From a virus (lineage: Duplodnaviria > Heunggongvirae > Uroviricota > Caudoviricetes): a stretch of 11,771 nucleotides of DNA. A program made the translations under genes and the position numbers. Below the pieces are notes generated by a model. The model was not told where the DNA came from, did no database searches, and was given only the letters and a program-made list of their open reading frames with translations. Location of the stretch: the IMG/VR virus record IMGVR_UViG_2526164631_000020; one strand, written 5' to 3'. The stretch's first letter is position 1. The number at the start of each line of letters is the position of its first letter. This document shows positions 1 through 11,771 of the stretch, piece after piece.

Positions 1-132
1 AGTGTGAAAGATATGACAATTACGGTAAACGGCGTGGCGACAGGTAAGGTGCAGATCCCTGTGGTGAGCGGAAATGGTCAGTTCGCCGCAGTGGCTGAAG
101 TCACCGTTACTGAAGCGGGCGCTGCAGGGTAA
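1..132 (+). CDS. V: Major tail protein V, C-terminal fragment (5' end lies outside the window)
   Basis: Frame is open from base 1 to TAA at 130-132 (translation ...[22 protein letters not shown]). It ends 13 nt before the G start, with SD GGAGG at 135-139 in between. Assignment is by position in the conserved lambda order V-G-T-H; the sequence itself was not matched to V. Confidence 0.5.
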
Positions 133-145
133 ACGGAGGTAATAC

Positions 146-577
146 ATGTTTCTGAAAACAGAACAATTTGAATATAACGGTGTGTCCGTCACGCTTTCCG
201 AGCTGTCTGCGCTGCAGCGTATTGAGCATCTTGCCCTCCTGAAACGGCGTGCAGAACAGGCAGAATCCAGCGGCAACCTGCAGGTAAGCGTGGAAGATCT
301 CGTCAGAACCGGCGCGTTTCTGGTGGCGATGTCCCTGTGGCATAACCATCCGCAGAAAACGGCATCACCGTCAATGAATGAGGCTGTGATGCAGATCGAA
401 CAGGAGGTGCTCACCACCTGGCCTGCGGATGCCATTGCCCGGGCGGAAGATGTGGTGTTGCGTCTGTCCGGGATGAGCGGGGCTGTTCATGCGGATACTG
501 ACAGCACCGAAGTGGCGAAAAATAACGCGCTGACTGATGATGATTTTTCTGCGGGAAAGTCTTCGACGGCGAGCTGA
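146..577 (+). CDS. G: Tail assembly chaperone gpG
   Basis: 143-aa ORF with ATG at 146 preceded by SD GGAGG. Translation (MFLKTEQFEYNGVSVTLSELSALQRIEHLALLKRRAEQAES...) closely resembles lambda gpG as I recall it, and the size matches (lambda 140 aa). The slippery heptamer sits 6 codons before the stop. Confidence 0.9.
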   Translation: MFLKTEQFEYNGVSVTLSELSALQRIEHLALLKRRAEQAESSGNLQVSVEDLVRTGAFLVAMSLWHNHPQKTASPSMNEAVMQIEQEVLTTWPADAIARAEDVVLRLSGMSGAVHADTDSTEVAKNNALTDDDFSAGKSSTAS

Positions 578-1017
578 ATTTTGCCCTCAGACTGGCGCGA
601 GAGATGGGGAGGCCTGACTGGCGCGCCATGCTTGCCGGGATGACATCCACCGAATATGCCGACTGGCGACATTTTTACCGCACGCATTATTTTCACGATA
701 CCCAACTGGATATGCATTTTTCCGGGCTGACGTACGCCGTACTCAGCCTGTTTTTTTGCGATCCGGATATGCATCCCTCTGATTTCAGTCTGCTTGTCCC
801 CCGGCATGAGGAAGAGCAGGTGGAGAGGCTGGATGAGGACAAAATGCTGATGCAGAAAGCGGCAGGACTTGCCGGAGGCGTCCGGTTCGGTGGGGACGGA
901 GGGGGCGATATTTTATCGTCTGCGGATGTGGCGGATGTCATGGTGGATGATGCCGCATTAATGAGGGCTTCAGCGGGGATTCCAGGAGGTGTGAGATATA
1001 TCCCAGCCGGTTGGTGA
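146..1017 (+). CDS. T: Tail assembly chaperone fusion gpG-T, made by programmed -1 ribosomal frameshift (G frame 146-559, then T frame 559-1017)
   Basis: Heptamer G_GGA_AAG at 553-559 lies in the G frame near its end. The -1 frame is open from there to TGA at 1015-1017, and the ORF track shows the T-domain frame (604..1017) with no plausible independent start or SD. This is the conserved G/G-T arrangement of lambda-like phages. Confidence 0.8.
553..559 (+). promoter_or_regulatory. -1 programmed ribosomal frameshift slippery site (GGGAAAG)
   Basis: The sequence gcGGGAAAGtc reads A-G-K in the G frame (codons 551-559). A one-base slip back re-pairs the tRNAs on GGG AAA and continues in the T frame. 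Confidence 0.8.
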
Positions 1018-1063
1018 TCTTATTATTGACCTGAGTCTGGATGCGGTCCGTTTCGATGAGCAG

Positions 1064-2353
1064 ATGAGCCGGGTAAGGCGTCATTTTTCCGGACTGGAGA
1101 CTGACGCCAGAAAAACCGCCGGTGTCGTTGAGCAGAACCTGAGTCGTCAGGCGCTGGCTGCACAAAAAGCCGGGATTTCCGTCGGGCAGTATAAAGCGGC
1201 CATGCGAACCCTGCCCGCACAGTTTACGGATATCGCCACGCAGCTTGCCGGTGGTCAGAATCCCTGGCTGATCCTGCTGCAACAGGGCGGTCAGGTGAAG
1301 GACTCCTTCGGCGGGATGATCCCCATGCTCAGGGGGCTTGCCGGTGCGATCACCCTGCCGATGGTCGGGGTCACCTCGCTGGCGGTGGCGACAGGTGCGC
1401 TGGCGTACGCCTGGTACCAGGGGGATTCCACGCTTTCAGCGTTTAATAAAACCCTGGTTCTTTCCGGTAATCAGTCCGGACTGACTGCCGATCGTATGCT
1501 GACTCTCTCAAGAGCCGGGCAGGCAGCAGGGCTGACGTTTAACCAGGCGAGAGAGTCACTGGCAGCCCTGGTGAATGCCGGTGTGCGTGGTGGTGAACAG
1601 TTTGATGCCATCAACCAGAGTGTCGCGCGTTTTGCGTCTGCATCCGGTGTGGAGGTGGATAAAGTCGCTGAAGCCTTCGGGAAGCTGACCACTGACCCGA
1701 CGTCGGGACTGATGGCGATGGCGCGCCCGTTCCGTAACGTGACGGCAGAGCAGATTGCGTATGTTGCGCAGCTGCAGCGTTCCGGTGATGAGGCCGGGGC
1801 CTTACAGGCGGCGAACGAGGCCGCAACGAAAGGGTTTGATGACCAGACCCGCCGCCTGAAAGAGAACATGGGCACGCTGGAGACCTGGGCAGACAGGACT
1901 GCACGGGCATTCAAATCCATGTGGGATGCGGAGCTGGATATTGGTCGTCCTGATACCGCGCAGGAGATGCTGATTAAGGCAGAGGCTGCGTTTAAGAAAG
2001 CAGACGACATCTGGAATCTGCGCAAGGATGATTATTTTGTTAACGATGAAGCGCGGGCGCGTTACTGGGATGATCGTGAAAAGGCCCGTCTTGCGCTTGA
2101 AGCCGCCCGAAAGAAGGCTGAGCAGCAGACTCAACAGGACAAAAATGCGCAGCAGCAGAGCGATACCGAAGCGTCACGGCTGAAATATACCGAAGAGGCG
2201 CAGAAGGCTTACGAACGGCTGCAGACGCCGCTGGAGAAATATACCGCCCGTCAGGAAGAACTGAACAAGGCACTGAAAGACGGGAAAATCCTAGCAGGCG
2301 GATTACAACACGCTGATGGCGGCGGACGAAAAAGGATTATGAAGCGACGCTGA
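1064..2353 (+). CDS. H: Tail length tape measure protein H, N-terminal segment (the frame is open from 995 but has no ATG/GTG/TTG before 1064; the ORF is cut short by frame disruption near 2292-2330)
   Basis: 429-aa ORF, Ala/Gln/Glu-rich and coiled-coil-like (…RRHFSGLETDARKTAGVVEQ… …KAEQQTQQDKNAQQQSDTEASRLKYTEEAQKAYERLQ…), matching the lambda gpH N-terminal half as recalled. Located between T and M. Ends at TGA 2351-2353 after an aberrant tail (…KILAGGLQHADGGGRKRIMKRR*). Confidence 0.8.
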   Translation: MSRVRRHFSGLETDARKTAGVVEQNLSRQALAAQKAGISVGQYKAAMRTLPAQFTDIATQLAGGQNPWLILLQQGGQVKDSFGGMIPMLRGLAGAITLPMVGVTSLAVATGALAYAWYQGDSTLSAFNKTLVLSGNQSGLTADRMLTLSRAGQAAGLTFNQARESLAALVNAGVRGGEQFDAINQSVARFASASGVEVDKVAEAFGKLTTDPTSGLMAMARPFRNVTAEQIAYVAQLQRSGDEAGALQAANEAATKGFDDQTRRLKENMGTLETWADRTARAFKSMWDAELDIGRPDTAQEMLIKAEAAFKKADDIWNLRKDDYFVNDEARARYWDDREKARLALEAARKKAEQQTQQDKNAQQQSDTEASRLKYTEEAQKAYERLQTPLEKYTARQEELNKALKDGKILAGGLQHADGGGRKRIMKRR

Positions 2354-2373
2354 AAAAGCCGAAACAGTCCGGC

Positions 2374-3561
2374 GTGAAGGTGTCTGCGGGCGATCGTCAG
2401 GAAGACAGTGCTCATGCTGCCCTGCTGACGCTTCAGGCTGAACTCCGGACGCTGGAGAAGCATGCCGGAGCAAATGAGAAAATCAGCCAGCAGCGCCGGG
2501 ATTTGTGGAAGGCGGAGAGTCAGTTCGCGGTACTGGAGGAGGCGGCACAACGTCGCCAGCTGTCCGCACAGGAGAAATCCCTGCTGGCGCATAAAGATGA
2601 GACGCTGGAGTACAAACGCCAGCTGGCTGCACTTGGCGATAAGGTCACGTATCAGGAGCGTCTGAATGCGCTGGCGCAGCAGGCGGATAAATTCGCACAG
2701 CAGCAACGGGCAAAACGGGCCGCCATTGATGCGAAAAGCCGGGGGCTGACTGACCGGCAGGCAGAACGGGAAGCCACAGAACAGCGCCTGAAGGAACAGT
2801 ATGGCGATAATCCGCTGGCGCTGAATAACGTCATGTCAGAGCAGAAAAAGACCTGGGCGGCTGAAGACCAGCTTCGCGGGAACTGGATGGCAGGCCTGAA
2901 GTCCGGCTGGAGTGAGTGGGAAGAGAGCGCCACGGACAGTATGTCGCAGGTAAAAAGTGCAGCCACGCAGACCTTTGATGGTATTGCACAGAATATGGCG
3001 GCGATGCTGACCGGCAGTGAGCAGAACTGGCGCAGCTTCACCCGTTCCGTGCTGTCCATGATGACAGAAATTCTGCTTAAGCAGGCAATGGTGGGGATTG
3101 TCGGGAGTATCGGCAGCGCCATTGGCGGGGCTGTTGGTGGCGGCGCATCCGCGTCAGGCGGTACAGCCATTCAGGCCGCTGCGGCGAAATTCCATTTTGC
3201 AACCGGAGGGTTTACGGGAACCGGCGGCAAATATGAGCCAGCGGGGATTGTTCACCGTGGTGAGTTTGTCTTCACGAAGGAGGCAACCAGCCGGATTGGC
3301 GTGGGGAATCTTTACCGGCTGATGCGCGGCTATGCCACCGGCGGTTATGTCGGTACACCGGGCAGCATGGCAGACAGCCGGTCGCAGGCGTCCGGGACGT
3401 TTGAGCAGAATAACCATGTGGTGATTAACAACGACGGCACGAACGGGCAGATAGGGCCACAGGCGCTGAAGGCTGTTTATGACGTAGCCCGTAAGGCGGC
3501 AATGGATGTTGTGACCGGGCAGATGCGCGATGGTGGTCTGTTCTCCGGAGGTGGACGATGA
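2374..3561 (+). CDS. H: Tail length tape measure protein H, C-terminal segment (different frame from the N-terminal segment; frame open from 2317)
   Basis: 395-aa ORF (…QAELRTLEKHAGANEKISQQRRDLWKAESQ… …GGFTGTGGKYEPAGIVHRGEFVFTKEATSRIGVGNLYRLMRGYATGGYVG…) matching the lambda gpH C-terminal half as recalled. Its stop TGA 3559-3561 overlaps the M start ATG 3558 (ATGA), as at the lambda H/M junction. Confidence 0.8.
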   Translation: MKVSAGDRQEDSAHAALLTLQAELRTLEKHAGANEKISQQRRDLWKAESQFAVLEEAAQRRQLSAQEKSLLAHKDETLEYKRQLAALGDKVTYQERLNALAQQADKFAQQQRAKRAAIDAKSRGLTDRQAEREATEQRLKEQYGDNPLALNNVMSEQKKTWAAEDQLRGNWMAGLKSGWSEWEESATDSMSQVKSAATQTFDGIAQNMAAMLTGSEQNWRSFTRSVLSMMTEILLKQAMVGIVGSIGSAIGGAVGGGASASGGTAIQAAAAKFHFATGGFTGTGGKYEPAGIVHRGEFVFTKEATSRIGVGNLYRLMRGYATGGYVGTPGSMADSRSQASGTFEQNNHVVINNDGTNGQIGPQALKAVYDVARKAAMDVVTGQMRDGGLFSGGGR

Positions 3562-3887
3562 AAACCTTCCGCTGGAAAGTGAAACCCGGGATGGATGTGA
3601 CATCGGCTCCTTCCGTCAGGGAGGTGCGCTTTGGTGATGGCTATTCCCAGCGTGCGCCTGCCGGGCTGAACGCTGACCTGAAAACGTACAGCGTGACGCT
3701 GTCTGTCTCCCGTGAGGAGGCCACGGCGCTGGAGTCGTTTCTGGCAGAGCACGGAGGCTGGAAGGCCTTTCTGTGGACGCCGCCTTATGGTTACAGGCAG
3801 ATAAAGGTGACCTGCACAAAATGGTCGTCGCAGGTCAGTATGTTGCGTGTTGAGTTCAGCGCAGAGTTTAAACAGGTGGTGAACTGA
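3558..3887 (+). CDS. M: Minor tail protein gpM
   Basis: 109-aa ORF (MKTFRWKVKPGMDV…WTPPYGYRQIKVTC…LRVEFSAEFKQVVN), the same length as lambda gpM and very similar as recalled. SD GGAGGTGGA at 3547-3555; start overlaps the H stop. Confidence 0.9.
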   Translation: MKTFRWKVKPGMDVTSAPSVREVRFGDGYSQRAPAGLNADLKTYSVTLSVSREEATALESFLAEHGGWKAFLWTPPYGYRQIKVTCTKWSSQVSMLRVEFSAEFKQVVN

Positions 3888-4585
3888 TGCAGGATATCCG
3901 GCAGGAAACACTGAATGAATGCACCCGTGCGGAGCAGTCGGCCAGCGTGGTGCTCTGGGAAATCGACCTGACAGAGGTCGGTGGAGAACGTTATTTTTTC
4001 TGTAATGAGCAGAACGAAAAAGGTGAGCCGGTCACCTGGCAGGGGCGACAGTATCAGCCGTATCCCATTCAGGGGAGCGGTTTTGAACTGAATGGCAAAG
4101 GCACCAGTACGCGCCCCACGCTGACGGTTTCTAACCTGTACGGTATGGTCACCGGGATGGCGGAAGATATGCAGAGTCTGGTCGGCGGAACGGTGGTCCG
4201 GCGTAAGGTTTACGCCCGTTTTCTGGATGCGGTGAACTTCGTCAACGGAAACAGTGACGCCGATCCGGAGCAGGAGGTGATCAGCCGCTGGCGCATTGAG
4301 CAGTGCAGCGAACTGAGCGCGGTCAGTGCCTCCTTTGTACTGTCCACGCCGACGGAAACGGACGGCGCTGTTTTTCCGGGACGTATCATGCTGGCCAACA
4401 CCTGCACCTGGACCTATCGCGGCGGTGAGTGCGGTTATCACGGTCCGGCGGTCGCGGATGAATATGACCAGCCAACGTCCGATATCACGAAGGATAAATG
4501 CAGCAAATGCCTGAGCGGTTGTAAGTTTCGCAATAACGTCGGCAACTTTGGCGGCTTCCTTTCCATTAACAAACTTTCGCAGTAA
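3887..4585 (+). CDS. L: Minor tail protein gpL (tail tip assembly, C-terminal Cys cluster)
   Basis: 232-aa ORF, the same length as lambda gpL. Start ATG 3887 overlaps the M stop (TGATG). The C-terminus carries the Cys motif C..C(x5)C..C (…DKCSKCLSGCKFRNN…) that is consistent with the Fe-S cluster site of gpL. Confidence 0.9.
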   Translation: MQDIRQETLNECTRAEQSASVVLWEIDLTEVGGERYFFCNEQNEKGEPVTWQGRQYQPYPIQGSGFELNGKGTSTRPTLTVSNLYGMVTGMAEDMQSLVGGTVVRRKVYARFLDAVNFVNGNSDADPEQEVISRWRIEQCSELSAVSASFVLSTPTETDGAVFPGRIMLANTCTWTYRGGECGYHGPAVADEYDQPTSDITKDKCSKCLSGCKFRNNVGNFGGFLSINKLSQ

Positions 4586-4590
4586 ATCCC

Positions 4591-5334
4591 ATGACAGAGA
4601 CAGAATCAGCGATTCTGGCGCACGCCCGGCGATGTGCGCCAGCGGAGTCGTGCGGCTTCGTGGTGAGAACGCCGGAGGGGGAAAGATATTTTCCCTGCGT
4701 GAATATTTCCGGTGAGCCGGAGGATTATTTCCGGATGGCTCCGGAGGACTGGCTGCAGGCAGAGATGCAGGGTGAGATTGTGGCGCTGGTCCACAGCCAC
4801 CCCGGTGGTCTGCCCTGGCTGAGTGAGGCTGACCGGCGGTTGCAGGTGCAGAGTGATTTGCCGTGGTGGCTGGTCTGCCGGGGGGCGATTCACAAGTTCC
4901 GCTGTGTGCCACATCTTACCGGGCGGCGCTTTGAGCACGGGGTGACGGACTGTTACACGCTGTTCCGGGACGCTTACCATCTGGCGGGGATTGAGATGCC
5001 GGATTTTCATCGTGAGGATGACTGGTGGCGTAACGGTCAGAATCTCTATCTGGATAATCTGGAGGCCACAGGGCTGTATCAGGTGCCGTTGTCAGCGGCG
5101 CAGCCGGGCGATGTGCTGCTGTGCTGTTTTGGTTCATCGGTGCCGAATCACGCCGCAATTTACTGCGGCGACGGCGAGCTGCTGCACCATATTCCTGAAC
5201 AACTGAGTAAACGAGAGAGGTACACCGACAAATGGCAGCGACGCACACACTCCCTCTGGCGTCACCGGGCATGGCACGCATCTGCCTTTACGGGGATTTA
5301 CAACGATTTGGTCGCCGCATCGACCTTCGTGTAA
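4591..5334 (+). CDS. K: Tail tip assembly protein gpK (MPN/JAMM-like plus NlpC/P60-like domains); an alternative internal start at ATG 4735 gives the 199-aa form annotated in lambda
   Basis: 247-aa ORF. JAMM-type motif HSHPGGLPWLSEAD (H-x-H-x7-S-x2-D) at codons 68-81 (nt 4792-4833). Downstream there are Cys/His-containing stretches (…GVTDCYTLF… and …NHAAIYCGDGELLHH…) typical of NlpC/P60 peptidases. Overlaps the I start by 103 nt, as in lambda. Confidence 0.85.
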   Translation: MTETESAILAHARRCAPAESCGFVVRTPEGERYFPCVNISGEPEDYFRMAPEDWLQAEMQGEIVALVHSHPGGLPWLSEADRRLQVQSDLPWWLVCRGAIHKFRCVPHLTGRRFEHGVTDCYTLFRDAYHLAGIEMPDFHREDDWWRNGQNLYLDNLEATGLYQVPLSAAQPGDVLLCCFGSSVPNHAAIYCGDGELLHHIPEQLSKRERYTDKWQRRTHSLWRHRAWHASAFTGIYNDLVAASTFV

Positions 5335-5873
5335 AAACGGGGGCCGAAGCTATCCGTGCGCTGGCCACACAGATCCCGGCGTTTCGTCAGAAACTGAATG
5401 AGGGCTGGTATCAGGTGCGCATTGCCGGGCGTGATGCAGGCGAAACCGAATTATCTGCCCGTCTTAATGAGCCGCTGGCAAATGGTGCCGTGATCCACAT
5501 TGTGCCGCGTCTGGCGGGTGCCAAAAGTGGCGGTGTTTTTCAGGCAGTGCTGGGTGCGGCGCTGATTGCTACGGCAATCTGGATGCCGGGAATCAGTATC
5601 GCTTTCAGTGACATTCTCTTTTCTATGGGGGCAGCGATGACGCTTGGTGGTGTTGCACAGATGCTGGCTCCTAAACCCCAAACCCCCCGAACGCAGACAA
5701 CGGATAACGGCAAACAGAACACCTATTTCTCCTCACTGGATAACATGGTTGCCCAGGGCAATGTTCTGCCTGTTCTGTACGGTGAAATGCGCGTGGGGTC
5801 ACGCGTGGTTTCTCAGGAGATCAGCACGGCAGACGAAGGGGATGGTGGTCAGGTTGTGGTGATTGGTCGCTGA
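5232..5873 (+). CDS. I: Tail tip assembly protein gpI
   Basis: 213-aa ORF beginning inside the K 3' end (the K/I overlap conserved in lambda). N-terminus MAATHTLPLASPGMARICLYGDLQRFGRRIDLRVKTG…, a hydrophobic central segment, and C-terminus …VLYGEMRVGSRVVSQEISTADEGDGGQVVVIGR. Appears about 10 codons shorter than lambda gpI by recollection. Confidence 0.85.
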   Translation: MAATHTLPLASPGMARICLYGDLQRFGRRIDLRVKTGAEAIRALATQIPAFRQKLNEGWYQVRIAGRDAGETELSARLNEPLANGAVIHIVPRLAGAKSGGVFQAVLGAALIATAIWMPGISIAFSDILFSMGAAMTLGGVAQMLAPKPQTPRTQTTDNGKQNTYFSSLDNMVAQGNVLPVLYGEMRVGSRVVSQEISTADEGDGGQVVVIGR

Positions 5874-5891
5874 TGCAAAATGTTTTATGTG

Positions 5892-5911
5892 AAACCGCCT
5901 CCGGGCGGTTT
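5892..5911 (+). other. Intergenic stem-loop between I and J (possible attenuator or RNA-processing structure)
   Basis: Perfect 8-bp inverted repeat AAACCGCC (5892-5899) / GGCGGTTT (5904-5911) with a 4-nt loop, followed by a T-rich but interrupted tract (ttgtcgttta). Confidence 0.3.
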
Positions 5912-5933
5912 TGTCGTTTATGGAGCATGACGA

Positions 5934-8900
5934 ATGGGCAAAGGAAGCAGTAAGGGGCATACCCCGCGCGAAGCGAAGGACAACCTGAAGTCCACGCAAC
6001 TGCTGAGTGTGATTGATGCCATCAGCGAAGGGCCGATTGACGGTCCGGTGGATGGATTAAAAAGCGTGCTGCTGAACAGTACGCCGGTGCTGGACAGTGA
6101 GGGGAATACCAATATCTCCGGTGTCACGGTGGTGTTCCGGGCTGGTGAGCAGGAGCAGACTCCGCCGGAGGGATTTGAATCCTCCGGCTCCGAGACGGTG
6201 CTGGGTACGGAAGTGAAATACGACACGCCGATCACCCGCACCATCACGTCGGCAAACATCGATCGTCTGCGTTTTACCTTCGGTGTGCAGGCACTGGTGG
6301 AAACCACCTCAAAGGGGGACAGGAATCCGTCGGAAGTCCGCCTGCTGGTTCAGATACAACGTAACGGTGGCTGGGTGACGGAAAAAGACATCACCATTAA
6401 AGGCAAAACCACCTCACAGTATCTGGCATCGGTGGTGGTGGGTAACCTGCCGCCGCGCCCGTTCAATATCCGGATGCGCAGGATGACGCCGGACAGCACC
6501 ACAGACCAGCTGCAGAACAAAACGCTCTGGTCGTCATACACCGAAATCATCGATGTGAAACAGTGCTACCCGAACACGGCACTGGTCGGCGTACAGGTGG
6601 ATTCGGAGCAGTTCGGCAGCCAGCAGGTGAGCCGTAATTATCATCTTCGCGGGCGCATTCTGCAGGTGCCGTCGAACTATAACCCGCAGACGCGACAATA
6701 CAGCGGTATCTGGGACGGAACGTTAAAACCGGCATACAGCAACAACATGGCCTGGTGTCTGTGGGATATGCTTACCCATCCGCGCTACGGCATGGGGAAA
6801 CGTCTTGGTGCGGCGGATGTGGATAAATGGGCGCTGTATGTCATCGGCCAGTACTGCGACCAGGCAGTGCCGGACGGCTTTGGCGGCACGGAGCCGCGCA
6901 TCACCTGTAATGCGTACCTGACCACACAGCGCAAGGCGTGGGATGTGCTCAGTGATTTCTGCTCGGCGATGCGCTGTATGCCGGTATGGAACGGGCAGAC
7001 GCTGACGTTCGTGCAGGACCGACCGTCGGATAAGGTGTGGACCTATAACCGCAGTAATGTGGTGATGCCGGATGATGGCGCGCCGTTCCGCTACAGCTTT
7101 AGCGCCCTGAAAGACCGCCATAATGCCGTTGAGGTGAACTGGATTGACCCGAACAACGGCTGGGAGACGGCGACAGAGCTTGTGGAGGATACGCAGGCCA
7201 TTGCCCGTTACGGTCGTAACGTCACGAAGATGGATGCCTTTGGCTGTACCAGCCGGGGGCAGGCACACCGCGCCGGGCTGTGGCTGATTAAAACAGAACT
7301 GCTGGAAACGCAGACCGTGGACTTCTGCGTGGGCGCAGAAGGGCTTCGCCATGTGCCGGGCGATGTCATTGAAATCTGTGATGATGACTATGCCGGTATC
7401 AGCACCGGTGGTCGTGTGCTGGCGGTGAACAGCCAGACCCGGACGCTGACGCTCGACCGTGAAATCACGCTGCCATCCTCCGGTACCACGCTGATAAGCC
7501 TGGTTGACGGAAGTGGCAATCCGGTCAGCGTGGAGGTTCAGTCCGTCACCGACGGCGTGAAGGTAAAAGTGAGCCGTGTTCCTGACGGTGTTGCTGAATA
7601 CAGCGTATGGGGGCTGAAGCTGCCGACGTTGCGCCAGCGCCTGTTCCGCTGCGTGAGTGTCCGTGAGAACGACGACGGCACGTACGCTGTCACAGCCGTG
7701 CAGCATGTCCCGGAAAAAGAGGCCATCGTGGATAACGGGGCGCACTTTGACGGCGACCAGAGCGGCACGGTGAATGGTGTCACGCCGCCAGCGGTGCAGC
7801 ACCTGACTGCCGAAGTCACCGCAGACAGCGGGGAGTATCAGGTGCTGGCGCGATGGGACACACCGAAGGTGGTGAAGGGCGTGAGCTTCCTGCTCCGTCT
7901 GACCGTAACAGCGGACGACGGCAGTGAGCGGCTGGTCAGCACGGCCCGGACGACGGAAACCACATACCGCTTCACGCAACTGGCGCTGGGGCGTTACACG
8001 CTGACAGTCCGGGCGGTAAATGCGTGGGGGCAGCAGGGCGATCCGGCATCGGTATCGTTCCGGATTGCGGCACCGGCAGCGCCTGTCACTATTGAACTGA
8101 TACCAGGGTATTTTCAGATAACAGCGGTCCCGAAACTGGCTGTATATGACCCGACGGTGCAGTTTGAGTTCTGGTTCTCGGAAAAGCGGATTATCGATAT
8201 CAGGCAGGTTGAAACCAGCGCGCGTTATCTTGGTACGGCGCTGTACTGGATAGCCGCCAGTAGCAATATTAAGCCGGGTTATGATTATTACTTTTATATC
8301 CGCAGCGTGAACACCGTAGGTAAATCGGCATTTGTGGAGGCCGTCGGTCGGGCGAGCGATGATGCGGAAGGTTATCTGAATTTTTATAAAGGGTTGATCA
8401 ATAAAACGCATCTCGGCAAGGAACTGCTGGAAAACTTTGAGCTGACGGAGGATAACGCCAGCAAACTGGAGGAGTTTTCGAAAGAGTGGAAGGACGCTAA
8501 CGATAAATGGAATGCCATGTGGGGCGTCAAAATTGAGCAGACCAAAGACGGCAAACATTATGTCGCGGGTATTGGCCTCAGCATGGAGGACGCGGAGGAA
8601 GGCAAGCTGAGCCAGTTTCTGGTTGCCGCTAACCGTATCGCGTTTATTGACCCGGCAAACGGGAATGAAACGCCGATGTTTGTGGCGCAGGGCAACCAGA
8701 TATTCATGAATGACGTGTTCCTGAAACGCCTGACGGCCCCCACTATTACCAGCGGTGGCAATCCACCGGCATTTTCCCTGACACCGGACGGAAAGCTGAC
8801 TGCTAAAAATGCGGATATCAGTGGCAGTGTGAATGCGAACGCCGGGACGCTCAACAATGTCACGGTAAATGAAAACTGTACGATTAAGGGCATGCTGGAG

Positions 8901-9347
8901 GCGACCCAAGTCAGAGGGGATTTCGTTAAAGCTGTATCCAAATCATTTCCGAAACAGGCTGGTACGTGGGGTAACACGGAAACACCAAACGGGACGGTTA
9001 CAGTCACCATCAGCGATGATCATAACTTTGACCGTCAAATCATTATTCCGCCCATTATCTTTAACGGAATAGCGTATAGCTATCCGGGAAGTGGTAATAA
9101 CCCGGGAGGTACAAGTTACACGGGTTATGGTTTTGAAGTTCGCAAAAACGGTGTATTAATCGCATCCAGAGAAACTAAAGGGGCCATTCCCGGTAGCTAC
9201 AGTGCGGTTATTGATATGCCGAGTGGCAGGGGAAGCGTCACTCTGGAGTTTAAGGTTTTCCATAAAGGCAATCAGTGGGCAGGTAATATCACCGACTGTA
9301 CGGTGATTGTGACCAAAAAAGCCGCTTCCGGCATCAGTATTCGTTGA
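5934..9347 (+). CDS. J: Central tail fibre / host specificity protein gpJ
   Basis: 1137-aa ORF (lambda J is 1132 aa as recalled) with SD GGAG at 5922-5925. The N-terminal ~1000 aa look lambda J-like ([35 protein letters not shown]…). The C-terminal ~150 aa are the expected receptor-binding region. Confidence 0.9.
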
Positions 9348-9365
9348 AATTGTTATAACCCATAT

Positions 9366-9393
9366 AAGGGCACCAGAAATGGTGCCTTTTTTA
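9366..9393 (+). terminator. Rho-independent terminator downstream of J
   Basis: GC-rich hairpin GGCACC (9369-9374), loop AGAAAT, GGTGCC (9381-9386), followed directly by TTTTTT (9387-9392). Lies 19 nt after the J stop. Confidence 0.65.
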
Positions 9394-9416
9394 TTGCAGA
9401 AAAGCGAGAGGTAATT

Positions 9417-10016
9417 ATGCGTAAAGTTTGTGCAGCCATTTTGTCCGCAGCCATCTGTCTGTCCGTATCCGGTGCGTCTGCATGGGCGTCTGAACATCAG
9501 TCCACACTGAGCGCGGGGTATCTTCATGCCCGGACGAACGCTCCCGGTAGCGATAATCTTAACGGGATTAACGTGAAATACCGTTATGAATTTACGGACA
9601 CGCTGGGGCTGGTGACGTCATTCAGCTATGCAGGAGACAAGAATCGCCAGCTTACCCGTTACAGCGATACCCGCTGGCATGAAGATTCCGTGCGTAACCG
9701 CTGGTTCAGCGTAATGGCGGGGCCGTCTGTGCGCGTGAATGAATGGTTCAGCGCGTATGCGATGGCGGGTGTGGCTTACAGCCGTGTGTCGACTTTCTCC
9801 GGGGATTATCTTCGCGTAACTGACAACAAGGGGAAAACGCACGATGTGCTGACCGGAAGTGATGACGGTCGCCACAGCGACACCTCTCTGGCGTGGGGAG
9901 CTGGCGTGCAGTTTAACCCGACCGAATCCGTGGCCATTGATATTGCTTATGAAGGTTCCGGCAGTGGTGACTGGCGCACTGACGGTTTCATCGTGGGTGT
10001 CGGTTATAAATTCTGA
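9417..10016 (+). CDS. lom: Lom-like outer membrane beta-barrel protein (Ail/Lom/PagC/OmpX family), lysogenic-conversion moron
   Basis: 199-aa ORF with SD GAGAGG at 9405-9410. N-terminal signal peptide ([24 protein letters not shown]). C-terminus …[24 protein letters not shown] is identical in character to the lambda Lom C-terminal beta-strand with terminal Phe; the N-terminal two-thirds are more divergent. Confidence 0.85.
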
Positions 10017-10042
10017 TTAGCCAGGTAACACAGTGTTATGAC

Positions 10043-10070
10043 AGCCCGCCGGTTCAGGCGGGCTTTTTTG
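10043..10070 (+). terminator. Rho-independent terminator downstream of lom
   Basis: Perfect 8-bp stem AGCCCGCC (10043-10050) / GGCGGGCT (10057-10064), loop GGTTCA, followed by a T6 run (10064-10069). Lies 27 nt after the lom stop. Confidence 0.75.
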
Positions 10071-10080
10071 TGGGGTGAAT

Positions 10081-11394
10081 ATGGCAGTAAAGATTTCAGG
10101 TGTACTGAAAGACGGCACAGGAAAACCGGTACAAAACTGCACCATTCAGCTAAAGGCCAGACGCAACAGCACCACGGTGGTGGTGAACACGGTGGCCTCA
10201 GAAAATCCGGATGAAGCCGGGCGTTACAGCATGGACGTTGAGTACGGACAGTACAGCGTCAGTCTGTTGGTGGAGGGATTTCCGCCGTCACACGCCGGGA
10301 TTATCACCGTGTATGAGGACTCAAAGCCGGGCACACTGAATGATTTCCTCGGTGCAATGACGGAGGATGATGTCCGGCCGGAGGCACTGCGCCGTTTTGA
10401 ACTGATGGTGGAAGAGGTGGCGCGTCACGCTGAGGAGGCGAAGAAGAATGCCGGAGAGGCGGAGACGTCAGCGAGGAATGCCGGCATATCAGCCAGTCAG
10501 GCAGAAGAGAGCGCTGCAAATGCTGACACTTCAGCAGGGGAGGCATCGGAGTCAGCCCGGCAGGCGGCAGAAAGTGCAGCCTCAGCAAAGCAGTCAGAGG
10601 ATGCGTCCTCGTCCTCGGCTTCTGCGGCCGCTCAAAAAGCCAGTGAGTCATCACAAAGTGCAGCAGAAGCTGAATTGTCAAGAAAGACGGCAGAAAGTGC
10701 AGCCGGTAATGCAGCCAGGGATGCAATGACCGCAACAGAAAAAGCCCGGGAGTCAGCAGAAAGCGCACAGTCAGCGGAACAAAGCAGGATAGCGGCGGAA
10801 GACGCCGTAAACCGAATCCCCACCGTGGTGGGACCTCCCGGGCCAAAGGGAGAACCGGGGCCCGCGGGTCCTCAGGGGCCGAAGGGAGATAAAGGAGAGC
10901 GTGGCGACACCGGTCCTGTCGGGGCAACCGGTGAGCGGGGACCGGCAGGTGATGCTGGTCCGGCAGGCCCGCAGGGGCCGAAAGGCGACAGGGGAGAGCG
11001 GGGAGAGACCGGTCTGACGGGAAATGCAGGTCCACAGGGTCCAAAGGGAGATACCGGTGCGGCAGGCCCGGCTGGCCCACAGGGACCGAAAGGAGAAACA
11101 GGTGCGGCTGGCCCGGTGGGGGCAACCGGACCTCAGGGACCGAAGGGCGACCCGGGGGAGACACAAATCCGTTTTCGTCTGGGGCCGGGAAACATTATTG
11201 AGACAAACAGCCATGGCTGGTTCCCGGATACAGATGGCGCACTCATCACCGGACTGACCTTTCTTGACCCCAAAGATGCCACACAGGTTCAGGGTTTTTT
11301 TCAGCATTTGCAGGTCAGGTTTGGTGACGGGCCGTGGCAGGATGTTAAGGGGCTGGATGAAGTGGGCAGTGATACAGGCAGAACAGGAGAATGA
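10081..11394 (+). CDS. stf: Side tail fibre protein with lambda Stf-like N-terminal anchor, Ala/Ser/Glu-rich low-complexity segment, collagen-like Gly-X-Y region and a ~76-aa C-terminal tip domain
   Basis: ATG at 10081 (the ORF track starts at GTG 10075). N-terminus [38 protein letters not shown]… matches the lambda Stf N-terminus as recalled. Contains 37 consecutive G-X-Y triplets. Stop TGA at 11392-11394. Confidence 0.85.
10831..11163 (+). repeat. Collagen-like Gly-X-Y triplet repeat region inside stf (37 uninterrupted triplets, with GPQGPKG recurring five times)
   Basis: Translation [111 protein letters not shown]. The nucleotide sequence is GC-rich with imperfect internal repeats. Confidence 0.9.
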
Positions 11395-11395
11395 C

Positions 11396-11665
11396 ATGAA
11401 CGTACTAAAAAAACTTATGCAGCGTCTGTGCGGTTGCGGAAAGCATGATGACCGTGAACACGGGGAGTTACTTACAGCACAACTGCGTCTGGGGCCGGCA
11501 GACATTCTGGAGTCAGATGAGAATGGCATTATCCCGGAGCAGGCCAGGGTAATCACGCAGGTGGTGATACTGGATGCGGATAAAAAGCAGATACAGTGTG
11601 TGGTAAGACCGCTGCAAATCCTGCGTGCTGACGGGACGTGGGAAAATATTGGCGGGATGAAATAG
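11396..11665 (+). CDS. Hypothetical 89-aa protein, paralogue of the stf C-terminal domain
   Basis: ATG at 11396 with SD AGGAGA at 11385-11390, one base after the stf stop; TAG at 11663-11665. The segment LRLGPADILESDENGIIPEQARVITQVVILDADKKQIQCVVRPLQILRADGTWENIGG aligns with stf [60 protein letters not shown]. An identical 13-mer CGTCTGGGGCCGG occurs at 11176-11188 and 11486-11498. Confidence 0.6.
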   Translation: MNVLKKLMQRLCGCGKHDDREHGELLTAQLRLGPADILESDENGIIPEQARVITQVVILDADKKQIQCVVRPLQILRADGTWENIGGMK

Positions 11666-11771
11666 CCGACGAGTTCACAAAAACCGAACAGATCTGCCTG
11701 ATTGCCGAGGAAGAGCAACCGAAACTGATGGTAATTGACTCGATCCAGGTGATGCATATGGCGGATGTACC
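11632..11771 (+). pseudogene. radA: RadA/Sms-like recombinase gene fragment (internal RecA-like ATPase-domain segment, 5'-truncated; runs off the window end)
   Basis: Frame opens after TGA at 11629-11631 and reads RDVGKYWRDEIADEFTKTEQICLIAEEEQPKLMVIDSIQVMHMADV. The stretch EQICLIAEEEQPKLMVIDSIQVMHMADV (from about 11686) matches my recollection of an internal region of E. coli RadA/Sms (the hydrophobic-IDSIQ motif). The preceding residues do not resemble RadA and there is no N-terminal zinc-finger region. Confidence 0.45.

Follow-up and report, generated by a model that had tools for sequence, protein, structure and literature searches.

Gene J and its surroundings

The window, by which we mean the whole stretch of 11,771 nucleotides analysed in this study, carries a lambdoid tail gene J, the source element of which is an E. 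coli prophage. The features of J and of the segment downstream from it are listed below.

5934 to 9347, plus strand: gene J, tail tip attachment/central tail fibre protein, 1137 aa plus stop (open reading frame list and translation)
5934 to 8880, plus strand: lambda-like part of J, about aa 1-982, with hub domains, FNIII domains, helical shaft and beta-prism fibre
8850 to 8905, plus strand: mosaic junction, aa 973-991 approximately, in the linker between fibre prism and receptor-binding domain (30-nt identities, blastn)
8898 to 9344, plus strand: 434-type receptor-binding domain, aa 989-1137 (94% identity to 434 J, 37% to lambda J)
9366 to 9389, plus strand: terminator-like hairpin after J, a T run following its 10-bp stem; phage 434 has the identical sequence downstream of J, annotated there as a terminator
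9417 to 10016, plus strand: lom, Ail/Lom outer-membrane beta-barrel (Pfam Ail_Lom, E 1e-119)

The Pfam domains of J are arranged in the order FNIII-A_GpJ, Phage-tail_3, Ig_J, Ig_J_second, Phage_Tail_Tip and Ig_GpJ_C, and the identical J protein is carried by 13 public contigs. The C-terminal segment, to which the initial annotation had drawn attention as a possible host-range determinant, matches exactly aa 989-1137 of J (window 8898-9344), hereafter referred to as the tip. Its start had been set at 8890, which adjoins the mosaic junction almost exactly, because DNA similarity to lambda ends at about 8880-8903, but which is 8 nt too early and out of frame, the interval 8890-9347 being translated with stops. 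Two reverse-strand open reading frames overlapping the tip segment (8558-9010 and 9156-9527) were taken as by-products of the J frame.

The 5' part of lom belongs to the same lambda-unlike block as the tip, and similarity to lambda returns only at 9882 (blastn). The order of genes here, consisting of lom, a collagen-repeat side tail fibre and a small Phage_fiber_C open reading frame, is as in phage 434. A search of the window against Rfam gave no match, and the surroundings of the J-lom junction showed no promoter-like site.

Divergence from lambda J at the mosaic junction

J is five residues longer than lambda J (1137 versus 1132 aa; lambda J taken from NC_001416), as noted beforehand, and the global alignment of the two proteins gives an overall identity of 88%. 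The identity is, however, unevenly distributed. It is about 98% through aa 700; bins of 50 aa score 0.96-1.00 in that part, and those between aa 701 and 900 reach 0.82-0.94. The bin of aa 901-950 is fully conserved (1.00), after which the successive bins fall to 0.76, 0.42, 0.30 and 0.35. The N-terminal 1000 or so residues had been described as lambda J-like, and the match does extend over about 985 residues; up to this point J is nearly the same as the gpJ of the lambda structures (PDB 8XCK, closed; 8XCJ, with LamB). For the last 149 aa the identity decreases to 37%, with indels at lambda aa 1011/12 (+2), 1051 (+6), 1078 (+1), 1099 (+2) and 1109-14 (-6); the net gain of five residues, distributed over four loops, equals the five extra residues of J. 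These indels lie near positions 1012, 1048/49, 1077/78 and 1107, the four hot spots by which the natural J lineages are defined (PMC6646904).

The same break is observed at the DNA level. The identity to lambda is at least 93% before about 8850 and at most 67% from 8880 onward, and by blastn the window positions 12-8903 are 90.9% identical to lambda, with no similarity detected past 8903 within J. In 30-nt windows across the junction the lambda identity declines from 0.97 through 0.80, 0.67 and 0.53 to 0.40, while the 434 identity stays at 0.83-0.97 throughout. A recombination junction near codon 985 probably unites a 434-type tip with a lambda-like J body.

The doubt raised in the initial annotation, that the end of J could not be matched to the LamB-binding end of lambda J, was borne out: near-identity of the last 150 aa to lambda J is absent, as the tip has 37% identity to lambda and each of its four variable loops carries indels. 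This divergence is a plain sequence fact, to which chance statistics are not applicable. The tip lacks the close similarity to lambda J aa 990-1132 (approximately), loop lengths included, that would mark the LamB-specific lambda type: the identity is low, indels occur at five places and blastn similarity ends at 8903. The Ig-like fold is common to both tips, and the lambda motifs DDHxFDRQ, KNG, DMPxGxG and KKxxxGISI are also present in the tip of J; they occupy the predicted top-face loops and the C-terminal tail.

Relationship to phage 434 J and predicted fold of the tip

The best phage matches of the whole window are 434 and lambda h434 imm21, each 93% identical over 96-97% of the length. 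Phage 434 J (OL657226, UMO75286.1) is likewise 1137 aa long and 95.8% identical to J overall. The alignment of the two tips, one of the comparisons proposed beforehand, gave 140 identical residues out of 149 (94%) with nine substitutions and no gaps, and therefore all four variable loops are equal in length. The substitutions are, from window to 434, S1004A, Q1008K, A1009V, N1019D, S1049D, Y1050D, S1061R, R1099G and W1115R. After clustering at 75% identity or above, the tip was grouped with 434, apart from 10 other domain types.

The C-terminal part of J (aa 1001-1136, window 8934-9341) is matched by Pfam PF12421 Ig_GpJ_C (formerly DUF3672) with E 2.3e-26; the score is 92.9 bits, where the cut-off is 26.2, and the match spans profile positions 1-134 of 135. 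This family is described as a 'C-terminal receptor binding domain', and here it follows the full set of J domains. A structure model of the tip, also proposed beforehand, was made with AF2 (mean pLDDT 79.4, 13 strands), and the predicted fold is that of the solved lambda gpJ tip and of the A8 gpJ-OmpC complex. In Foldseek its best four PDB matches were 8xck, 9wcb, 9wca and 8xcj (E 1.5e-16 to 8e-16), with TM 0.69 for lambda gpJ (E 1.5e-16) and 0.70 for A8 gpJ (E about 2e-16); all matches after the gpJ tips had E > 5e-5.

Four variable segments are predicted to lie on the receptor-facing side of the tip. For this assignment we combined the strand order of the AF2 model with the four bottom loops described for lambda (PMC11101478).

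8943 to 8990, plus strand: predicted receptor-facing loop region L1, aa 1004-1019, with a 2-aa insertion relative to lambda aa 1011/1012
9069 to 9122, plus strand: predicted loop/hairpin L2, aa 1046-1063, with a 6-aa insertion relative to lambda aa 1051
9174 to 9191, plus strand: predicted loop L3, aa 1081-1086 (ETKGAI), with a 1-aa insertion nearby (window G1087; lambda aa 1078)
9255 to 9290, plus strand: predicted loop L4, aa 1108-1119, with a 2-aa insertion (1099) and a 6-aa deletion (1109-1114) relative to lambda

Eight of the nine differences from 434 are located in these putative receptor-facing loops: 1004, 1008, 1009 and 1019 in L1, which is hypervariable between domain types; 1049, 1050 and 1061 in L2, where S1049, Y1050 and S1061 set the J allele apart; and 1115 in L4, where W1115 is R in 434 and sites 1108, 1110 and 1115 are polymorphic within the 434 type. 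The entropy between domain types is high also in L3. A long 434-specific loop has been predicted to touch OmpC (PMC12502783); as that paper gives no 434 coordinates, we infer that this loop is L2.

Receptor assignment and alternative readings

Phage 434 uses OmpC as its receptor, and replacement of lambda J by the 434 gene transfers the use of OmpC (PMC11101478; PMC12502783). By homology, that is from the 94% identity to 434 J, the receptor of the tip is most likely OmpC rather than LamB, and the proposal in the initial annotation of a different outer-membrane receptor gains support because the tip is of the 434 type and not of the lambda type. In our judgement the last 149 aa of J probably constitute a 434-type (h434) receptor-binding domain that is joined near codon 985 to the lambda-like body and docks to OmpC. 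Judging from the homologous lambda gpJ, the central tail fibre would end in three copies of the Ig-like beta-sandwich, and their variable bottom loops L1-L4 would dock into the outward-facing opening of a trimeric porin, which for the 434-type domain would be OmpC and not LamB. By analogy with the lambda structures, the docking would spread the three tip domains apart, and this motion would pass up the beta-prism and the helical shaft, which are near-identical to those of lambda, to open the tail tip for DNA ejection.

Three other characterised tips of the gpJ fold, A8 and 1A2 (PMC11338833) and phi330 (PMC12502783), all use OmpC. The A8 tip, an OmpC binder, derives from natural J variants of E. 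coli phages, and the 1A2 chimera is related (Brodel et al. 2024, PMC11338833). The tip of the A8 gpJ chimera (PDB 9WCA; 9WCB with OmpC of E. coli EDL933) shares its fold with the tip of J but differs in loop sequences and lengths, the identity being 44% in global alignment and 49% over 181 Foldseek columns. The A8 domain type forms its own cluster, which includes many O157 sequences, and with 44% identity and a separate cluster the tip of J was not assigned to this type. The sequence and origin of 1A2 gpJ were absent from the supplementary text of PMC11338833 and from the available passages of 10.1101/2025.02.28.640725.

Tips 97-98.7% identical to that of J over 149 aa were found in Ayreon, ev099, Perceval, PhiR49_1, phi458, the cdtI phage and long-tailed Stx1a/Stx2c-converting phages. 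Ayreon and one aligned Stx1a phage differ from J in the tip only at Y1050D and S1061R. Phages with 98-99% identical tips grow on K-12 derivatives, as Ayreon was isolated on KD471 (PMC5764929) and phi458 was isolated or forms plaques on MC1061 (PMC9701743). Our literature search yielded only genome announcements, and no receptor data, for Ayreon, ev099, Perceval, PhiR49_1, mEp332 and phi458, and no receptors for the cdtI phage and the long-tailed Stx1a/Stx2c phages with similar tips. A review of STEC phages lists none for long-tailed Stx phages beyond the unconfirmed FadL and LamB (PMC8065619), and a receptor-prediction preprint (10.64898/2026.04.02.716166) covers the gpJ of Drexlerviridae, with lambdoid tips absent.

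Since the nine differences from 434 are mostly in hypervariable positions, the range of OmpC alleles recognised by J could differ from that of 434. In its stronger form, which we consider quite unlikely, the fold and mechanism of the tip are kept and the substitutions in L1, L2 and L4 retarget it to a subset of OmpC alleles other than that of 434, or to a porin such as OmpF. The nine positions are indeed variable ones (mean entropy between domain types 2.03 versus 1.37 bits, permutation p = 0.015), several substitutions alter the charge (from 434 to window these include D1049S, D1050Y, R1061S, G1099R and R1115W), and Y1050 and S1061 occur together in the J allele in place of D and R. Moreover, binding of gpJ to OmpC can be allele-specific, as for the 1A2 tip, which works on EDL933 OmpC and fails on MG1655 OmpC (PMC11338833), and one to four domain substitutions can switch the receptor of lambda to OmpF and that of phage 21 to OmpC (PMC6646904, PMC11336670). 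Against retargeting, the loop lengths are those of 434 on a scaffold that is 94% identical, and the Ayreon tip, only two residues away from that of J, belongs to a phage isolated on a K-12 derivative. Furthermore, a crude count of codon changes between the tips of J and 434 gave about 20 synonymous and 9 replacement changes; with this approximately twofold excess of synonymous changes the divergence looks like allelic drift and not an adaptive burst, and we claim no positive selection for the tip. It is likewise rather unlikely that the Y1050/S1061 allele, with S1049, R1099 and W1115, recognises OmpC variants different from those of 434 or a second porin. If it does, the L2 hairpin polymorphism, in which the D1050-R1061 pair is exchanged for a coupled Y-S pair, would switch the host range among EPEC/EHEC prophages.

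A very improbable reading takes J as a relic in a tail-defective prophage, with a specificity that the element does not use and that serves only as recombination stock. In the tape-measure gene H of the contig (region at about 998-3561 of the window), the start codon reads ATA instead of ATG, and two 1-nt insertions divide the gene into two open reading frames. The window is, however, a whole draft contig, three long or complete assemblies with the identical J encode an intact 853-aa tape measure and have neither insertion, a near-identical prophage in CP077479 has an intact H, and the reading frame of J itself is open over its full length. Because H is intact in these relatives, its lesions resemble errors of draft assembly or a mutation private to this contig. 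The relic reading would in any case be compatible with the preferred assignment of a 434-type, OmpC-docking tip, because it concerns the use of the domain and not its target.

That the tip still binds LamB as that of lambda does, its divergence being neutral, is hardly credible: the fold and conserved motifs are common to both tips and the lambdoid phage 21 natively uses LamB (PMC11336670), but the tip has 37% identity to that of lambda and indels in every one of the four variable loops, and the near-identical 434 tip represents the classical non-LamB host range (PMC11101478).

The 434-type tip of J, ordinary rather than unusual, is a module that has long been known and is very common. The J gene of this prophage is best annotated as a host-range allele of the 434 type that probably targets OmpC, and not as one that binds LamB, with little import beyond annotation. 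For engineered lambda particles directed to OmpC it is of some practical interest that 434-type loop polymorphisms may tune the OmpC alleles recognised. Among 5426 complete E. coli genomes, the same DNA module as the tip of J was detected in 2111 and the lambda-type module in 98. In E. coli genomes it is thus the tip of lambda itself that is rare, outnumbered about 20-fold by the 434-type module.

The J gene and its lambda-unlike end

The tail tip attachment protein J is encoded by one gene, and the initial annotation had singled out its last 149 residues as the segment determining receptor specificity in lambdoid phages.

J gene in the window
5934..9347, + strand: J, single long ORF, 1137 aa

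These residues occur once, exactly, at aa 989-1137 (window 8898-9344); the span 8890-9347 proposed for them begins 8 nt too early and in the wrong frame, in which it contains stop codons. Its start falls almost on a mosaic junction. In agreement with the initial annotation, J is 5 residues longer than lambda J (1137 aa vs 1132 aa; NC_001416), and its N-terminal part, to about aa 985, is lambda J-like. After global alignment the two proteins are 88% identical overall, the identity in 50-aa bins being 0.96-1.00 to aa 700, 0.82-0.94 for aa 701-900, 1.00 for aa 901-950, and then 0.76, 0.42, 0.30 and 0.35. Over the last 149 aa the identity to lambda J is 37% (global alignment), far from near-identity, and the suspected departure of this end from lambda was thus borne out. 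A second, milder variable patch is located in the helical-shaft region (aa 801-850, window about 8334-8483), which is only 82% identical to lambda and to phage 434 alike, with flanks of 90-100%. The greater length of J is due to the tip, where the indels sum to net +5.

Indels of the window tip relative to lambda J (lambda residue: change in the window)
aa 1011/1012: +2
aa 1051: +6
aa 1078: +1
aa 1099: +2
aa 1109-1114: -6

These indels lie close to the four hot spots, 1012, 1048/49, 1077/78 and 1107, by which natural J lineages are defined; the laboratory shift of lambda to OmpF also requires residues 1012 and 1107 (Maddamsetti et al., PMC6646904).

The DNA identity to lambda, at least 93% upstream of about 8850, is no more than 67% from 8880 on, and the blastn alignment to lambda ends at 8903 and restarts only at 9882, within lom. 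The lambda-unlike block, 8880-9881, runs from the J tip across the intergenic terminator into lom, taking in about two thirds of that gene at its 5' end, and as judged from this comparison the J tip and 5' lom appear to move as a single exchange unit relative to lambda. Since hairpins matching annotated phage 434 terminators follow both genes, lom would be a separately terminated unit.

Terminator-like hairpins in the window
9366-9389: 3' of J, matching a terminator annotated in phage 434
10043-10064: 3' of lom, matching a terminator annotated in phage 434

Assignment of the J tip and its predicted receptor

Pfam detected the full lambda-J architecture on the window J, its last domain (aa 1001-1136, E 2.3e-26) being Ig_GpJ_C ('Tip attachment protein J, C-terminal receptor binding domain'). 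The best phage-genome matches to the whole window, at about 93% identity over 96-97%, were phage 434, its clear-plaque mutant 434B and the hybrid lambda h434 imm21. The J of phage 434 is of the same length, 1137 aa, and 95.8% identical overall; the alignment of the C-terminus with 434, as suggested by the initial annotation, showed the last 149 aa to be 94% identical and free of indels, with nine substitutions (window to 434: S1004A, Q1008K, A1009V, N1019D, S1049D, Y1050D, S1061R, R1099G and W1115R). After tblastn of the 149 aa against phage genomes, the records split cleanly into 74 with at least 90% identity and 169 below 60%, the top matches (98.7%) being ev099, Ayreon, Perceval, PhiR49_1 and long-tailed Stx1a- and Stx2c-converting phages. 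Y1050D and S1061R are the sole differences of the window tip from those of Ayreon and one aligned Stx1a phage, and over aa 989-1137 the alignments showed no difference between the window J and the representative sequence of a 330-member protein cluster. By these sequence comparisons, the J tip of the window is of the h434 type, one allele of a module that is very common and has long been known.

This assignment supports the initial proposal that the receptor is not LamB, and by homology the most likely receptor is OmpC, because OmpC is used by phage 434 and, once it carries the 434 J gene, by lambda (PMC11101478, PMC12502783). OmpC is also bound by three other characterised tips of the same fold, A8, 1A2 and phi330 (PMC11338833, PMC12502783). 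Ayreon (PMC5764929) and phi458 (PMC9701743), which were isolated or plaque on K-12 derivatives, carry tips 98-99% identical to that of the window. One to four substitutions in this domain can shift receptor use (PMC6646904, PMC11336670), and OmpC-binding tips can be allele-specific, 1A2 working on EDL933 OmpC but failing on MG1655 OmpC (PMC11338833); a changed OmpC allele range for the window allele is therefore conceivable though rather unlikely, and the use of another porin is less likely still. Binding of this h434-type tip to LamB is highly improbable.

Predicted structure and variable loops of the tip

Residues 960-1137 were modelled by AlphaFold2 from an input alignment of 21 sequences, giving an all-beta tip domain of 13 strands (mean pLDDT 79.4). 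Foldseek against PDB gave four standout matches (E 1.5e-16 to 8e-16, TM about 0.7; the next ones above E 5e-5), all of the same fold as the model: 8XCK and 8XCJ, the lambda central fibre in closed and LamB-bound states, and 9WCA and 9WCB, 'A8 gpJ 713' in closed and OmpC-bound states. The PDB sequence search agreed with this result, and neither search included a 434-type tip among its PDB matches.

Alignment of eleven tip types revealed four hypervariable segments, at window aa about 1004-1019, 1046-1063, 1077-1090 and 1107-1121, separated by the conserved motifs DDHxFDRQ, KNG, DMPxGxG and KKxxxGISI. Since the chain enters the tip domain from the fibre above and loops alternate between the ends of the beta-sandwich, the strand order of the model would place all four segments at the distal end, in line with the lambda complex, where four bottom loops, L1-L4, are inserted into LamB (PMC11101478). 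Variability between types is higher at the nine sites that differ from 434 than in random nine-position sets (2.03 vs 1.37 bits, p = 0.015), and the recurrent polymorphic sites within the 434 type are 1004, 1008, 1009, 1019, 1049, 1050, 1061, 1099, 1108, 1110 and 1115. Y1050 and S1061 co-occur, replacing D and R, both in a hairpin 6 residues longer than that of lambda, which may correspond to the long 434-specific loop predicted to touch OmpC in an AlphaFold3 model (PMC12502783). Synonymous differences from 434 in the tip are about twice the replacements, and therefore no positive selection is claimed.

By homology, the tip domain would trimerise at the end of the central fibre and the four distal loops would dock into the mouth of the trimeric porin; docking would then spread the three domains, with relay through the beta-prism and helical shaft to opening of the tail tip, following the mechanism described for lambda (PMC11101478). 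In the window J these relay parts are near-identical to those of lambda.

Distribution and genomic context

Of 5426 complete E. coli genomes, 2111 contain a megablast-level match to the 444-nt tip module (8904-9347), and a single genome can have as many as 7 copies; the equivalent lambda module was found in 98 of the same genomes, always at 99% identity or above, and the five top-ranked records listed were laboratory K-12/B or DE3-type strains. With a limited homologue sample yielding at least 11 tip types when clustered at 75% identity, these counts indicate that departure from lambda is the norm and lambda the rare case. The exact J protein is present in 13 public contigs.

The window is identical to the entire draft contig AIHA01000060.1 (assembly GCA_000250215.2), and aligns at 99.3% to a prophage of E. 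coli O111:H2 strain 12A (CP077479), the identity reaching 99.9% for 5934-11771 (J through the side tail fibre region). The draft may come from the same strain (DEC12A). The 12A prophage adjoins potAB/pepT and has genes for type III effectors (NleG-family and EspW) at its end. Its similarity to the window stops at 11686, leaving 11687-11771. In complete genomes the next genes (14848-18568 of the 12A prophage locus) are NleG-family fragments, IS2 in some, EspW and another NleG-like gene, placing the tail module in a prophage carrying type III effectors.

Side tail fibre region of the window
10081-11394: side tail fibre, with Prophage tail fibre N-terminal domain, collagen-like G-x-x repeats (Pfam Collagen) and Phage_fiber_C
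11396-11665: small ORF, 89 aa, made up of a second Phage_fiber_C copy

The side tail fibre also has an alanine/serine/glutamate-rich stretch, and the counterpart of the 89-aa ORF in phage 434 is annotated as a tail fibre assembly chaperone. The tape-measure gene H (998-3561) looks disrupted in this contig: its start codon is ATA (G to A at 1000), where lambda and the 12A prophage have ATG, and two single-A insertions near 2293 and 2326 cause a frameshift, leaving ORFs 1064-2353 and 2374-3561. These lesions are probably draft-assembly errors or a private mutation, because both insertions are absent from the intact H of the 12A prophage and from three assemblies, long or complete, that encode the identical J protein together with an intact tape measure of 853 aa. 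Mismatches to the 12A prophage number 76, and 47 of them are in window 1-500 (V end and G gene), which could be a collapsed or chimeric contig-end repeat or a real mosaic boundary. Five more are clustered inside the side tail fibre gene within a 37-nt stretch (11139-11175), in or beside the collagen-like repeats, possibly from repeat-driven misassembly or gene conversion.
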